Below, in pieces: positions 37,869-50,308 of a stretch of 56,571 nucleotides of DNA (positions are counted from its first letter, which is position 1; each line of letters starts with the position of its first letter). The stretch spans positions 1 to 56,571 of IMG/VR virus record IMGVR_UViG_3300020352_000005. The stretch is one strand, 5' to 3'. The stretch is from a virus (taxonomy: Duplodnaviria > Caudoviricetes). The position numbers and the translations under genes were made by a program. The notes under the pieces are model-generated. The model was not told where the DNA came from. It saw nothing but the letters and a program-made list of their open reading frames with translations, and searched no databases.

Positions 37869-40094
37869 TTATTGTATAATTTGGCTATAACTTCCCTTAT
37901 TGTCGTATCTTGCAAAGTTAAGTTTTATTTTTGATTTCTTTTTAATGGGTTGGTAAAGTCCCTTTTGTGTCGCCATAATAGCTAAACCTGAGCTAATAGA
38001 TGCATCAAACTTGGTTCTATTGTTAATATTAAACCTAGCCCAATCTTCAAGAGTTCTGCTAAAATACATAGAACCCATTGAGTCAGAATCTCTAAATACA
38101 CTATCTAAATCTAATCCAACGTGCTTTTCTATATAAGATTCTATTGCTGCTGCATGAGCTTGTTTTATGTCTTCAGAACTATTGGGAATACCTCCTAACT
38201 CTCTTTCGGTTTTAGATAATTTAGTATATATTTTATCTGGTCTGTTCATAGAAAATCCTCTGTACCCTCTGTTTTTAAAATGATACAAAAGACGAGGTTT
38301 ATTATTTTCTATTAATATTGGCATTCCATAAAACACACAAGCCATTAAAACATCTTCAAAAAATATTTCAGCTGTTTGAGGTCTTGCTATGTACTCTAAA
38401 AAAAACTCATTAGTAGGCCCTTCATCCATATGAAATTTAGTCATTCCGTGCAACGCTCCATTTGAACCTCCTCCACCAACTGTTCCTGATATATCGTAAC
38501 TATCACAACCAAATGCCCCCATGTGTTCGTTCTTTGGATATTTTATCCCTCCCTTTATATAATATTTGTTTTGCAAATGTTTGTTTGGAGTCCAAGAAAC
38601 ATAAAACCTGCCCCTATCGTTTGGAGAAAAAATAACTTCTGTATCTTTTATTCCATTTTTCCAAGAAAAAGACCCCCTAGTAATAAATCTATCTTTTATT
38701 AAGGAATCGTTATAATCTATTTGCTGATAAATTTTTTGTAGATTAAACAAAGATTGCTTGCTCTCATCTCTAAAAGCATGAGACTCAGTTCTTGGAAATT
38801 GTCTATAATATTCGTTCAATCCGTCAGGATCTGATTTCAACCCTTCTACTTCGTTATTCCAATGGTCTATAACTCCTGTATCAATAACTTCTGCGTAAGG
38901 GCCAATGCAATCTTCCTGTGGGGTTTCGAATACAGGCATTCCATAAGAATCAATGAATCCCTCGTAATTCCATTCCATAGGAATGAACAAAGAATATAAT
39001 CCTGACTTAGTTTGTCCATTCTTATTTCGCTTTCTAACATCTGAATCGTTGTAAAGTTTTTTAAAATTTCCACCTCCTTTTTCTAAAGAATTAGATGTTG
39101 AACCCATCATGCATTTTCCTATAACTCTAGCACCCAATCTTAAACAGGTTTTTGTAACTCTCCAGTTGTTTAATATGTTATCAGGCTTTTCCCACTTGCC
39201 ACTTTCATCGTGAGCTAGTAGTTTTAATTTTTCCCCATCGTATGAGTTGTCCCCTGTGTTCTTCCAGTCGATTGTGGTATCGAGACCTTCAAGCTCCTTG
39301 ACTGCTTCGTTCGCATCCAATTTTTTTCTTGTAAGTTTGGAGGCAGGTACTCTATAGGCAAGTTCTGTCTTGGGCCTGTCCATACCGTCCTGGATGGGTT
39401 TGAAAAAGAAGGGGTAGTTGAGTGATATCGGTACGACTTTGTCGGTAAACATCTTTTTAGCATCCGACCCAGTCTTTGACAATATACCATAACGTGAATC
39501 TCGTGAGGTTGTTGCCAAATGCACGAGTTCCGATGAGGACATGAAGCTAAACCCAGAGCGCCTGTTTTTAAGATAGCACATTCCGTACGATCTTGAGTCT
39601 GATTTACAAGCCTCCCAGAATATAAAGAATAATCGGTTTGATTCCCTAAAGTTTGGCTGCCCAACGTCAATTTTGGTCCAGCGCAAGTACATGTAATGAG
39701 AGCCAGTAATATAAGAAGGCTTGTCTTTATTAAAAAACCAAAAACCTTGTTCTCTTCTTTCAAACTCTTTGTCAATATAGTCATACCATTTTTCTTTAAA
39801 ATTATCAGGATATTTATCCCAATCAAATACACTTTTTATTTTGCTTAACTCTTTTGGGTATTCTATTTCCTCCCAATAATTTTTTTTAAAACGATATACA
39901 TCTTTTTCTTTAGGTAAAGCAATTTTTAAATTTTGTATTTCATATATCTCACCAATTGTGCCATCTTTAGATATAATAACTATGTCATATTCTGCATTAT
40001 ATCCGTAGTTCCATAACCTTTTTTTGTTATTAGAACTTATCACCTTTTCAGGCACAACGTCTTCTAGTATTTTATATAAACTCTGCTCGTACAT
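37869..40094 (-). CDS. terL: terminase large subunit
   Basis: Walker A KNRRSGFS, Walker B AHDESGKW, coupling motif GST, nuclease GCDSYD, ENNK and FDASISSG. Confidence 0.9.
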   Translation of the reverse strand: MYEQSLYKILEDVVPEKVISSNNKKRLWNYGYNAEYDIVIISKDGTIGEIYEIQNLKIALPKEKDVYRFKKNYWEEIEYPKELSKIKSVFDWDKYPDNFKEKWYDYIDKEFERREQGFWFFNKDKPSYITGSHYMYLRWTKIDVGQPNFRESNRLFFIFWEACKSDSRSYGMCYLKNRRSGFSFMSSSELVHLATTSRDSRYGILSKTGSDAKKMFTDKVVPISLNYPFFFKPIQDGMDRPKTELAYRVPASKLTRKKLDANEAVKELEGLDTTIDWKNTGDNSYDGEKLKLLAHDESGKWEKPDNILNNWRVTKTCLRLGARVIGKCMMGSTSNSLEKGGGNFKKLYNDSDVRKRNKNGQTKSGLYSLFIPMEWNYEGFIDSYGMPVFETPQEDCIGPYAEVIDTGVIDHWNNEVEGLKSDPDGLNEYYRQFPRTESHAFRDESKQSLFNLQKIYQQIDYNDSLIKDRFITRGSFSWKNGIKDTEVIFSPNDRGRFYVSWTPNKHLQNKYYIKGGIKYPKNEHMGAFGCDSYDISGTVGGGGSNGALHGMTKFHMDEGPTNEFFLEYIARPQTAEIFFEDVLMACVFYGMPILIENNKPRLLYHFKNRGYRGFSMNRPDKIYTKLSKTERELGGIPNSSEDIKQAHAAAIESYIEKHVGLDLDSVFRDSDSMGSMYFSRTLEDWARFNINNRTKFDASISSGLAIMATQKGLYQPIKKKSKIKLNFARYDNKGSYSQIIQ
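37913..37920 (-). promoter_or_regulatory. possible -7 promoter element TAACTTTG inside the terL 3' end
   Basis: TAnnTTTG 44 nt upstream of the portal ATG. Confidence 0.4.
39224..39784 (-). CDS. candidate overprinted +1-frame gene within terL (lipoprotein-like signal)
   Basis: 202-codon open frame (ATG at 39784 gives 186 aa), GC raised to ~48-50%, KTSLLILLALITC segment. Confidence 0.55.
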   Translation of the reverse strand: MTILTKSLKEENKVFGFLIKTSLLILLALITCTCAGPKLTLGSQTLGNQTDYSLYSGRLVNQTQDRTECAILKTGALGLASCPHRNSCIWQQPHEIHVMVYCQRLGRMLKRCLPTKSYRYHSTTPSFSNPSRTVWTGPRQNLPIEYLPPNLQEKNWMRTKQSRSLKVSIPQSTGRTQGTTHTMGKN

Positions 40095-40381
40095 TATTTT
40101 GACCTACCTTCAGCAAACCCCTTAAAGGAAGAGGCTTTACTTTCATTTTTATTACTTGCAATCATATTGTTTTCTTCTTCAATCTTAGATAAGATTTCAA
40201 AAGCATCGAATATAGCTAGCTTTTTTGAAGCTGCCGCATTTTTTAGTCTATCTGCTGCAATGTCAGGGGCTAGTCCATCTAGGTCTTTTTTTAATATACC
40301 CTCATTTGCAACTTTAATTAATTCTTTAACAGCTTTTTTTCCTGCTTTTATAATTTCTAACTTTAATTCAGTATTATTCAT
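40094..40381 (-). CDS. terminase small subunit (putative)
   Basis: 95-aa helical protein coupled (TAATG) to terL; ADRLKNAAASKKLAIFDAFEIL. Confidence 0.55.
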   Translation of the reverse strand: MNNTELKLEIIKAGKKAVKELIKVANEGILKKDLDGLAPDIAADRLKNAAASKKLAIFDAFEILSKIEEENNMIASNKNESKASSFKGFAEGRSK

Positions 40382-49074: not shown

Positions 49075-49308
49075 TTATTCTTTTTCTTTTTCTTTTAGTT
49101 CTCCAGTTTGTAAATTAATAACTGTGTTTTCGCCATACTTATCAACTAATTGTTTTTCGATAGTTGCGAATTCCGCTCTAACACTTTGGACTTGCTCAAT
49201 TACTAAGTGTTTTTGTAATTCTAAATCACCTAACTGAGTTTTAAAGTTTACAAAATCTGAATTCAAAGTTTGTAATTTTTCCAATTCTTGTTTTTCTAAA
49301 TTTTTCAT
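49075..49308 (-). CDS. small coiled-coil protein
   Basis: 77 aa; KYGENTVINLQTGE motif. Confidence 0.7.
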   Translation of the reverse strand: MKNLEKQELEKLQTLNSDFVNFKTQLGDLELQKHLVIEQVQSVRAEFATIEKQLVDKYGENTVINLQTGELKEKEKE

Positions 49309-49332
49309 TTTATTTAATTAAGGTTTATAATG

Positions 49333-49340
49333 CAAAGGTA
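49333..49340 (-). promoter_or_regulatory. Bacteroidota -7 promoter element TACCTTTG
   Basis: TAnnTTTG upstream of the tail fibre operon. Confidence 0.55.
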
Positions 49341-49345
49341 AAGAA

Positions 49346-49741
49346 TTATTCTTTATTTTTTTTTGATGCTTTCTCCCAACTTCTACCAACAAAATAAGCG
49401 CCATAAACAGTCACCAGTAGGGTTTGAAATATAGGGATGTAAGCTTCAGCTATTTTAAACTGACCAATGTTACCGTCAGTAAAACATAAAGCAGTAAATA
49501 TAATAGTAAGATATATTAAAACAAATGGACGTATATTTTTAGATAAAAAGCTATCGCTTTGCATATCGTACTTCCAACGCTCACTAACTTGCTCTTGAGC
49601 TTCTTTATCTGCTTGTTCAAGTATTTTTTGAATTTTTTCCTTTGCGGCCAATCTTTCTTCGTCTGTTGTAACCAAGTCATCAATAACTTTTCCGACTTCT
49701 TTTACAATTCCTCCTGTTAGCCATTGTATAATTTTTTTCAT
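49346..49741 (-). CDS. holin (GTA-type 3TM holin-like)
   Basis: RWKYDMQSDSFLSKNIRP, hydrophobic helices and GAYFVGRSWEK; coupled to the amidase gene. Confidence 0.75.
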   Translation of the reverse strand: MKKIIQWLTGGIVKEVGKVIDDLVTTDEERLAAKEKIQKILEQADKEAQEQVSERWKYDMQSDSFLSKNIRPFVLIYLTIIFTALCFTDGNIGQFKIAEAYIPIFQTLLVTVYGAYFVGRSWEKASKKNKE

Positions 49742-50166
49742 AAGTGACAGTATTCGTTATAAGCATCAAAACACGGACAACTTTTTCTTGCGAATTCGTT
49801 ATGTCCATGTATTGTTGCCTCTGGAAACATATTTTTAAGTAATTTTAATAAAGATAAAAGACTATCTTTTTGTTGATTTGTTCTGTTGTCATCGGCTTCC
49901 CACTTTCCGTCTTCTCCTCTTTCTTCTTTAACTCCTCCTGCGTAACAAATTCCTATTGAATTTTTATTCAAACCTTTTGTATGGGCGCCTGATTTTTCTA
50001 AAGGCCTACCTAATTGTATTTGACCTTCTCTTTTAATAAAAAAATGGTAGCCAATTCCTGACCACCCTCTTTTTTTGTGCCATCTGTCTACTTCTTCCGC
50101 ATCTATATCGTGAGAAGGTCTGGTAGCAGAGCAATGAACTATAATTTTATTTATTTTTCTTTTCAT
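49738..50166 (-). CDS. N-acetylmuramoyl-L-alanine amidase endolysin (T7 lysozyme-like)
   Basis: IIVHCSAT, IGYHF, GAHTKG.N..SIGICY.GG and GHNEF..KSCPCF motifs. Confidence 0.9.
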   Translation of the reverse strand: MKRKINKIIVHCSATRPSHDIDAEEVDRWHKKRGWSGIGYHFFIKREGQIQLGRPLEKSGAHTKGLNKNSIGICYAGGVKEERGEDGKWEADDNRTNQQKDSLLSLLKLLKNMFPEATIHGHNEFARKSCPCFDAYNEYCHL

Positions 50167-50308
50167 TGTAATTAATCCATATTCTTTGAGCCGTATATAT
50201 TATAGACGCTGATAATAGAATTAATTTTAAGACCATTTCGATATGGGTAAATGAAATAGCAAGGCTAAGTGAATTGAATGCATATATTTTAAAGTCTTGC
50301 ACAGTCAT
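50147..50308 (-). CDS. 53-aa membrane protein (holin/antiholin-like)
   Basis: MTVQDFKIYAFNSLSLAISFTHIEMVLKLILLSASIIYTAQRIWINYNEKKNK read by hand; overlaps the amidase start. Confidence 0.6.
   Translation of the reverse strand: MTVQDFKIYAFNSLSLAISFTHIEMVLKLILLSASIIYTAQRIWINYNEKKNK

Follow-up and report, generated by a model that had tools for sequence, protein, structure and literature searches.

The terminase large-subunit gene (terL) of IMG/VR virus record IMGVR_UViG_3300020352_000005 contains, on the same strand and in its +1 reading frame, a second open reading frame (ORF) at 39224-39784 (minus strand), and we are highly confident that it is a genuine overlapping protein-coding gene lying on the terL ATPase domain. 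The window analysed here is the whole virus record, 56,571 bases with a completeness estimate of 94%. The +1 frame is conserved as an open frame in diverged terL homologues, its first ~60 codons show selection at sites that are silent in terL, the remainder shows compositional selection, and the product has no relatives in the family databases searched. From these patterns we infer translation, export, lipidation, timing and role: late in infection, the product would play an accessory part at the envelope of the host.

The open +1 frame and its distribution among terL homologues

The two overlapping genes and the associated sites are located in the window as follows.

37869..40094, minus strand: terL, terminase large subunit, the host frame; 741 amino acids (aa); PHROG 6681, E 1.3e-169
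39224..39784, minus strand: overlapping +1-frame gene; ATG at 39784; 186 aa plus a stop at 39224-39226
39785..39832, minus strand: upstream open part back to a GTG; A-rich leader, probably untranslated
39675..39679, no strand assigned: GGWCC site spanning ORF codons Gly36-Pro37; one of two in the window

Counted from the GTG, the nested open frame (39224..39832, minus strand) is 202 aa long, and its offset from the terL start (40094-39832 = 262) places it in the +1 frame of terL. Across terL the +1 frame has 40 stops, with longest open runs of 203 codons and then 71; in the +2 frame, with 82 stops, no open run exceeds 36 codons. An earlier reading of the sequence alone had described this frame as open, with 186 aa from the ATG at 39784, and had noted that it coincides with a composition shift, with GC-ending codons and with a GGWCC site retained in a genome that otherwise avoids it. 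Each of these observations holds. In 120-nt windows the GC content is 0.44-0.46 over 39180-39599 versus 0.24-0.25 on either side (0.24-0.25 at 39720-39959; 0.25 at 38640-38759). The terL GC3 is 0.44 in the ORF region (0.49 over codons 125-290) versus 0.25 outside, while GC1 and GC2 do not change across the region, so that the rise is in third positions only. GGWCC occurs at two sites in the window (13672 and 39675) versus 28.8 ± 5.2 expected, a deficit that points to selection by a host restriction system with this specificity.

A scan of viral contigs yielded 80 terL homologues with 70-94% amino acid identity, which were codon-aligned with the window's gene (81 genes in total). The +1 frame is open for at least 150 codons in 48 of the 81 and for fewer than 80 codons in 30, which carry 6-13 stops in the segment; only three are intermediate. 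The distribution of openness is bimodal, with no class that is rich in GC3 yet rich in stops. Frequent +1 stops in homologues had been put forward as evidence that would speak against a gene, and the ORF-bearing homologues have none. Open homologues have a segment GC of 0.36-0.46 versus 0.32-0.38 for the whole gene, and in closed homologues the segment GC equals that of the gene. GC3 differs between ORF-bearing and ORF-lacking lineages over columns 160-360 of the alignment only (0.37-0.59 versus 0.15-0.29) and is equal elsewhere. The three intermediates (L038, L046 and L051), open for 97-112 codons with a segment GC of 0.37-0.38, may be recent losses that are decaying.

Synonymous shuffles argue that a run of this length is not due to chance. 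None of 20,000 whole-gene shuffles reached at least 203 open codons (maximum 167; P = 0.00015 for at least 150), and a shuffle restricted to the region, with local codon composition kept, gave 6.2 ± 1.5 stops versus one observed (P = 0.0004), that one being the boundary stop of the ORF. For a calibrated null, the synonymous codons of each gene were resampled from its own usage outside the region in 52 genes representing 29 ORF-bearing and 23 ORF-lacking lineages, dereplicated at 90%. Over columns 145-292 the ORF-bearing lineages have 0.03 stops versus 7.14 expected, and the ORF-lacking lineages 6.00 versus 7.09. In three control segments of terL the ORF-bearing lineages are on expectation (observed/expected 4.21/4.26, 3.41/3.66 and 5.21/5.49), as are the ORF-lacking lineages. 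Two homologues (L052 and L058) with a whole-gene GC of 0.41 and a segment GC of 0.42-0.43 have 9-10 stops, and GC content alone therefore does not open the frame. Openness in homologues, shuffles and calibrated null together support the overlapping same-strand gene that the sequence-only reading had proposed.

On the terL protein tree the open state occurs on both sides of the midpoint root, and open and closed sisters are interleaved (L054/L015, L047/L030, L076/L070, L059/L032). Parsimony requires 15 state changes on this tree, whereas shuffled labels need 25.5 on average and never fewer than 19; on a tree of the segment alone the open sequences do not form one clade, and 12 changes are required. 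A single origin with many subsequent losses is the simplest reading, in which the gene would have arisen by one de novo birth within this terL lineage, although some recombination may also have taken place. Import of the GC patch by recombination from a higher-GC phage, which had been named as a finding that would undercut the gene, was considered and rejected: GC1 and GC2 are unchanged, GC3 alone is raised, and the pattern recurs in 29 diverged lineages.

A profile built from 27 products was run against a library of 1.84 billion proteins and matched 147 representatives, 79 of them at E ≤ 1e-30; gene callers have thus predicted the frame many times, on contigs of up to 50 kb. None of the eight profile-matched clusters that were looked up carries a name, and the 15 matches examined are either the same ORF or chimeras of the terL and ORF frames. 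When 185,579 species-representative genomes were scanned for motifs, 31 loci were found, all on contigs of metagenome-assembled genomes (MAGs) mostly labelled Bacteroidota, and 31/31 lie in the +1 frame of a terL homologue, a proportion biased by the use of ORF motifs to find them. No free-standing copy of the product was seen in the library or genome scans, and none of 50,697 phage records matched the product in tblastn. The nearest named phages lack the ORF: the longest +1 run is 54 codons in Elemovirus (terL identity 44.7%) and 46 codons in MW202828 (69%). ORF-bearing phages appear to be a widespread group of uncultured marine flavobacterial phages. One 117,301-base MAG contig holds two ORF-bearing terL copies ~63 kb apart (L141 and L142), with products 44% and 41% identical to that of the window; this contig could be two related phage genomes joined in assembly.

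Selection at terL-silent sites and in the tail

Over columns 160-193, silent sites of terL are nearly fixed in ORF-bearing lineages and show the usual A/T mix in ORF-lacking lineages. The third bases of terL codons at seven of these columns are as follows.

Column 164: T in 100% of ORF-bearing and 35% of ORF-lacking lineages
Column 166: T in 100% of ORF-bearing and 52% of ORF-lacking lineages
Column 170: C in 100% of ORF-bearing (giving Thr, not Ile, in the ORF) and 39% of ORF-lacking lineages
Column 171: G in 100% of ORF-bearing (Cys, not Tyr) and 22% of ORF-lacking lineages
Column 172: G in 90% of ORF-bearing (Ser, not Asn) and 22% of ORF-lacking lineages
Column 190: C in 93% of ORF-bearing and 39% of ORF-lacking lineages
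Column 193: C in 86% of ORF-bearing and 22% of ORF-lacking lineages

The terL third base is T or C in 86-100% of the 29 ORF-bearing lineages at columns 160-168. Because terL third positions are ORF second positions, the near-fixed bases spell LL[IT]LL[VA]L[IT][TI]-C-T-C-S-G in the ORF frame, and the ORF motif continues as x-[KR]-L-x-L-G-x-Q-T...D-Y-S-L-Y-S-G. Adenine, which at this position gives polar or charged residues, makes up 4% of ORF second positions over columns 160-179 in ORF-bearing lineages versus 30% in ORF-lacking lineages.

At identical terL residues, the excess codon identity in ORF-bearing lineages over columns 140-200 is +0.12, +0.30 (columns 160-180) and +0.20 (columns 180-200); in ORF-lacking lineages it is +0.01, -0.01 and +0.07. 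Silent third-position differences between 20 independent closer pairs of ORF-bearing lineages are 0.159 over columns 145-200 versus 0.199 outside, and between eight ORF-lacking pairs 0.240 versus 0.215. The key cysteine of the product, Cys34 at column 171, needs the terL Leu codon to be TTG, which is so in 100% of ORF-bearing and 22% of ORF-lacking lineages. Neither Thr33, Cys34 nor Ser35 is forced by terL; the invariant terL Tyr at column 170 permits only Thr or Ile before Cys34, and Thr is found in 97%. At the N-terminus there is thus selection for a signal-peptide-like sequence with an invariant Cys that terL does not dictate.

The remainder of the product evolves differently. From column 200 to the stop, excess codon identity is +0.05 to +0.13, the same as in the rest of terL. 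A 95%-similar contig from an RNA library differs from the window at 30 positions, and the 15 listed produce 14 changes in the ORF, no change in terL and no stop. Products vary in length from 141 to 235 aa, with the ORF ending at columns 279, 293, 310, 317, 332 (the window) or 360-362. Relative to the decayed frame of ORF-lacking lineages over the same columns, a comparison in which the Mann-Whitney P ignores shared ancestry, the tail has fewer hydrophobic residues (0.31 versus 0.48), more Ser, Thr, Pro, Gly and Gln (0.39 versus 0.21), more Pro (7.1% versus 1.5%), slightly less Asp and Glu (5.6% versus 7.6%) and a shift from Lys to Arg. A Ser/Thr/Pro-rich later region had been noted from the sequence, and the residue composition indicates that the tail is selected for polarity. 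No tail stop occurs in 29/29 lineages versus 0.9-5.8 expected from local shuffles, with P values that are partly circular because ORF-bearing lineages were defined by their openness. GC3 returns to baseline just after each lineage's own ORF stop, a drop that does not discriminate between explanations because a GC3 patch that itself caused the openness predicts the same.

The predicted product and rival readings

Internal initiation on the late terL message, at the ATG at 39784, would probably produce the protein. The ATG lies at column 138 (position 39784) in 22/29 ORF-bearing lineages and at column 142 in 4/29; in two others (L019 and L026) the ATG stands only three residues ahead of the hydrophobic core (column 157) and there is a TTG at column 145, and one (L074) has only the TTG at column 145 and no ATG. 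The nearest upstream stop is at column 141 in 7/29 lineages, so that the upstream GTG is not a general start. Third bases at columns 134-136 are A in 97/90/83% of ORF-bearing versus 83/61/52% of ORF-lacking lineages, and an A/T-rich leader before the ATG would fit the Shine-Dalgarno-poor Bacteroidota. A string resembling a Bacteroidota -7 element, TGTATTTG, which lies ~40 nt upstream of the ATG, was considered as a sign of an internal promoter and rejected: it derives from terL Val-Phe-Asp and is equally common in ORF-lacking and ORF-bearing lineages, and so provides no evidence for such a promoter.

The product is divided into the following segments.

39725..39784, minus strand: n-region, residues 1-20, MTILTKSLKEENKVFGFLIK; net basic, with four K+R and two D+E
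39692..39724, minus strand: hydrophobic core, residues 21-31, TSLLILLALIT; silent-site selection
39677..39691, minus strand: CTC(S/A)G motif, residues 32-36, with Cys34 as the candidate residue for lipidation or the cleavage site
39599..39676, minus strand: conserved segment, residues 37-62, PKLTLGSQTLGNQTDYSLYSGRLVNQ; excess silent-site identity, including columns 190 and 193
39227..39598, minus strand: variable tail, residues 63-186; hydrophilic, rich in Pro, Ser, Thr and Arg, predicted disordered (pLDDT below 50)

Most of the 27 sequences have 3-5 K+R before the 11-residue core, and the Cys falls at position 30-34 (15 in two short-start sequences). The part that would be mature is 108-187 aa long with a pI of 8.4-11.6, 7.4% Pro and no second hydrophobic stretch, and the product is rich in Ser, Leu, Arg and Thr. 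AlphaFold, run on a 27-row alignment, placed a helix at residues 2-34 (pLDDT 50-72) and gave values below 50 for all else. Searches of Pfam and PHROGs with the product gave no match, and NCBIfam gave nothing beyond one chance-level match (E = 0.07).

The n-h-c layout and the selection for small residues behind the core, namely Thr, Cys, Ser and Gly, point to export: the basic n-region, the 11-residue core and CTC(S/A)G would form a Sec signal, and a gene whose 186-aa product is exported is our best explanation, which we regard as probable from the sequence features. Once exported, the product may be lipid-anchored at Cys34, or may be a signal-anchored or signal-peptidase-I product that is held or released. 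Lipid anchoring at Cys34 would account for the invariance of that Cys, and we give it, on motif evidence, somewhat under an even chance. The first ~60 residues would matter individually, as a Sec signal plus a short conserved segment of 25-30 aa; the basic, Pro/Ser/Thr-rich tail of the 108-187-aa mature part would act as a disordered tether or spacer of which only openness, composition or polarity, and approximate length are kept. The sequence-only reading had called the product a hidden envelope lipoprotein on the strength of the string K-T-S-LLILLALIT-C, which is present, and had itself called the lipobox non-canonical, as it is. From that proposal a real gene and a signal-like N-terminus stand, and the Cys is under selection.

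A number of observations weigh against this reading of the ORF as an exported, functional product, beyond the shared ancestry and circularity noted for the tail. Several residues of the product are dictated by terL: Cys32, Cys69 and Cys112 by terL Met followed by a T-initial codon (Met-Tyr for Cys32), Gly36 and Gly57 by terL Trp, and Trp135 by Met followed by a G-initial codon. Silent differences over columns 200-292 are 0.271 versus 0.199 outside, with 0.270 in the ORF-lacking control, and codon identity is 0.505 inside the ORF versus 0.586 outside. Over about two thirds of the ORF, terL-silent sites thus change at least as fast as elsewhere in terL, and only the first ~60 codons are under selection for particular residues; the suppressed synonymous variation that had been predicted for the ORF is found there and not over the remaining ~125. 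The gene is absent from 30/81 homologues and is therefore dispensable, not required for growth. The mean AlphaFold pLDDT is 41.9, and the ESM Atlas gave no usable match for the product, with low recognition. The canonical lipobox rule is [LVI][ASTVI][GAS]C (PROSITE, DOLOP). The window product reads LITC-TC, with Thr at -1 of either Cys and with Cys at -2 of Cys34; it matches only if Thr is allowed at -1, and for this reason is not filed as a lipoprotein. Among the 29 ORF-bearing sequences only L071 (ICSC) fits the strict rule. Contigs from RNA libraries cover parts of terL including the ORF; strand, ends and translation are unreadable from them, coverage is expected for terL anyway, they may be DNA carry-over, and gaps in their coverage are uninformative.

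The role of the product was considered in relation to the lysis genes of these phages. The lysis cassette of the window is as follows.

49075-50308, minus strand: lysis cassette encoding a 53-aa protein with one transmembrane domain (TMD), an amidase, a 131-aa holin and a 77-aa coiled-coil protein

The amidase belongs to PHROG 822 and the 131-aa 'holin', with a TMD at residues 69-92, to PHROG 3427; the one-TMD protein, amidase and holin lie within 49346-50308, ~9.5 kb from the ORF. No canonical lipoprotein ORF was found in the window, and none of the window ORFs encodes an i-spanin-like protein with an N-terminal TMD and a coiled coil. This agrees with the sequence-only reading, which had seen no spanin elsewhere in the window, and it leaves the outer-membrane step of lysis unaccounted for. 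Among related records, ORF-lacking G001 has an 86-aa TMD and coiled-coil gene, a 120-aa lipoprotein (LLVSC) and an M15 endolysin (L084, 17438-19463), and ORF-lacking G002 has a 162-aa lipoprotein (LLTSC) with a C-terminal TMD beside the endolysin (L094, 45818-47471). By their layout the G001 pair looks spanin-like and the G002 protein u-spanin-like; PHROGs names neither as spanins, and PHROG 1119 'Cor' weakly matches the G002 lipoprotein (E 3e-4) and not the ORF product. In ORF-lacking MW202828 a 207-aa N-anchored Cys protein adjoins the M15 endolysin. No convincing canonical lipoprotein ORF was found in ORF-bearing records G000, G006-G011 and G015; strict-pattern matches in G006, G007 and G008 are ORFs of 35-56 aa without an MKK-type N-terminus and were judged spurious. 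Nor was a convincing lipoprotein found in ORF-lacking G003, G004, G005, G012 and G019, which are 26-59% complete; one 33-aa strict-pattern match in G012 was judged spurious. The window amidase, used as a query for lysis cassettes in ten related records, found nothing, and the G001 M15 endolysin was the more effective query for the cassettes of relatives. Lysis genes are scattered in these phages, and PMC8776804 has spanins annotated in only a few of the flavobacterial phages that it describes.

Complementarity between the ORF and canonical lipoproteins is suggestive but only an anecdote, since G001 and G002 form one clade and the other ORF-lacking contigs are fragments. Association of the ORF with the PHROG-3427 'holin' (4/4 ORF-bearing versus 0/3 ORF-lacking at first) was rejected when homologues were found in ORF-lacking G004 and G019. 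In G006 and G008 the holin and the 77-aa coiled-coil protein are paired just upstream of a GroES-like gene and terL.

Help with the outer-membrane step of lysis is our best single guess for the role, and a tentative one. In its specific form it would make the product an outer-membrane lipoprotein, an o-spanin or a single-component substitute that finishes lysis after holin and endolysin. The signal-like N-terminus with a selected Cys, the unstructured Pro/Ser/Thr-rich tail without a second TMD and a presumed late gene context all fit such a protein, and overprinted lysis genes are a known theme, as in T7 18.7 inside 18.5. The comparison of genomes points the same way, in that four ORF-bearing genomes that are 75-100% complete (G000, G006, G007 and G008) have no convincing canonical lipoprotein, and ORF-lacking G001 and G002 carry a canonical lipoprotein gene, and MW202828 its N-anchored Cys protein, beside the endolysin. 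However, G001 and G002 belong to one clade and amount to one or two independent contrasts, the other ORF-lacking contigs examined likewise have no convincing lipoprotein, the G001 and G002 proteins are not named spanins by PHROGs, and the lysis genes are scattered. The ORF lies neither inside nor beside an i-spanin gene, the window has no i-spanin-like protein, the lipobox is non-canonical and the mature part, at 108-187 aa, is longer than one would expect in an o-spanin. We consider an o-spanin or substitute possible, well short of an even chance. A more specific version, in which a de novo, lipid-anchored, disordered and basic lysis factor acting on the outer membrane replaces the canonical spanin of sister lineages, is somewhat more doubtful.

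Receptor masking or superinfection exclusion is about equally likely as help with lysis. Here the product would be an envelope protein that blocks the receptor used by the phage itself, both on infected cells and on the debris of lysed ones. Its accessory behaviour, with ~15 inferred state changes that are probably mostly losses, is what such a protein would show, as are a fast-evolving exposed tail, a conserved membrane-proximal part and the signal-like N-terminus with its selected Cys. Against this, Pfam, PHROGs and NCBIfam show no relation to any Sie family, and a disordered tail would be unusual as a receptor ligand. We rate it, too, as well short of an even chance.

That the ORF is not a gene is quite improbable. 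On this account its openness is a by-product of a patch of G/C-ending codons kept for another reason, such as translation speed, messenger RNA or DNA structure or a packaging signal, and the +1 frame is never translated. The GC3 rise and the open frame are coextensive, as the account predicts, residue identity is unconstrained over most of the ORF and the predicted product is unstructured. Yet shuffles that keep local composition still expect 6.2 stops in the window and 0.9-5.8 in the 29 tails versus none; L052 and L058 reach the same GC with no patch and have 9-10 stops; the bimodal distribution holds no GC3-rich, stop-rich class; and the fixed silent sites at columns 160-193 read as a hydrophobic core followed by Thr-Cys-Ser, with A at 4% versus 30%. 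The ATG is also kept in 26/29 lineages, and Rfam over 38900-40200 gave only a chance-level miRNA match (E = 0.17).

Programmed +1 frameshifting from terL, giving an N-terminal TerL fragment fused to the ORF product, is very improbable: database proteins P0003, P0083 and P0141 do join the terL frame to the ORF frame, but chimeras occur in both directions (P0009 and P0024 begin in the ORF frame and continue in that of terL) and P0003 is short of ~13 codons where the frames meet, so that they look like indels in assemblies, and the ATG follows an upstream stop in nearly all lineages (a +1 stop at column 120 in 72% of ORF-bearing lineages, and at column 141 as the nearest in 7/29).

The chimeric profile matches are P0003, P0009, P0014, P0024, P0048, P0062, P0083 and P0141. 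In P0062 an unrelated 118-aa N-terminus is joined to the ORF tail. These proteins could be assembly indels, defective genomes or an insertion in terL.

A second open patch in the +1 frame of terL lies at 38867-39073 (minus strand; codons ~340-405, 68 aa from a GTG), together with a second GC bump. Columns 380-445 have 0.41 stops in ORF-bearing and 0.91 in ORF-lacking lineages versus 2.0 expected, and are stop-free in 22/29 and 10/23, respectively. Third positions are biased (G in 90% at column 411, C in 85% at column 419), and silent-site identity in ORF-bearing lineages is in excess by +0.20 and +0.16. This patch may be another overlapping ORF or a nucleic-acid element.

Significance and comparison with known systems

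As a hallmark gene of tailed phages, terL serves in phylogeny and as a baseline for dN/dS, on the assumption that it encodes only one message. Across its ATPase domain a second gene of ~190 codons has been kept for long in many lineages and lost in others, so the silent sites of this marker are not neutral across a whole clade. A protein family present in many marine metagenomes is hidden by standard gene callers, and de novo gene birth is possible even on a highly constrained template. The interspersed ORF-bearing and ORF-lacking sisters form a natural experiment on the fate of a host gene once its overprinted frame is lost: GC3 falls back and stops build up. Should the product act on the envelope, it may also be relevant to the passage of flavobacterial phages through the outer membrane; if it is a lysis factor, it would belong to a class of lysis proteins that is new, and terL, the most conserved tailed-phage gene, would be a nursery for new genes.

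In phage lambda the o-spanin gene Rz1 is embedded inside Rz, and the T7 record annotates gene 18.7 inside 18.5. The ORF resembles these embedded o-spanin genes in lying entirely within a longer late gene of a tailed phage, on the same strand but out of frame, and in encoding an N-terminal signal with a Cys and an unstructured, Pro-containing part that is predicted to be periplasmic. Unlike them, its host gene is terL and not a functional partner, and the window has no i-spanin; the lipobox departs from the canonical form, and the product, 2-4 times the length of theirs, is unrelated to them in sequence. The T7 RefSeq record also lists genes 19.2 (85 aa) and 19.3 (57 aa) as 'hypothetical protein', nested in gene 19 (terL) and, from their coordinates, in the +1 frame. 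They share with the ORF the position of a +1-frame ORF inside a terminase large-subunit gene, but they lack a signal-like N-terminus and belong to a different terL family, and BLASTP of the product against T7 19.2 found no similarity (E = 34). We know of no conservation or function shown for 19.2 or 19.3.

The small phages phiX174 and MS2 have overprinted lysis proteins, E (inside D) and L. By analogy, the product may likewise be a de novo alternative-frame protein in an essential structural gene that acts on the envelope, and like them it has one hydrophobic segment and a basic, poorly ordered part. Those genes, however, are alone responsible for lysis in very small genomes; the phage studied here already encodes a holin and an amidase, and its ORF is dispensable in many relatives. 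The exclusion lipoproteins Llp of T5 and Cor of phi80 and T1 offer another possible analogy as small accessory envelope lipoproteins, found in virulent or temperate phages, that are often lost or swapped; they are free-standing genes with canonical lipoboxes and folded domains and have no similarity to the ORF.

As in the long overlapping genes of bacteria and viruses treated in PMC8227390 and PMC6195259, the origin is by overprinting, the young frame evolves faster than the old one, and Ser, Leu, Arg and Thr are abundant in the product. Our full-text literature searches found no report of an overlapping gene in the terminase of Bacteroidota phages. Overprinting in phages is well known, and what is new here is an unnamed de novo family in an unexpected host gene.

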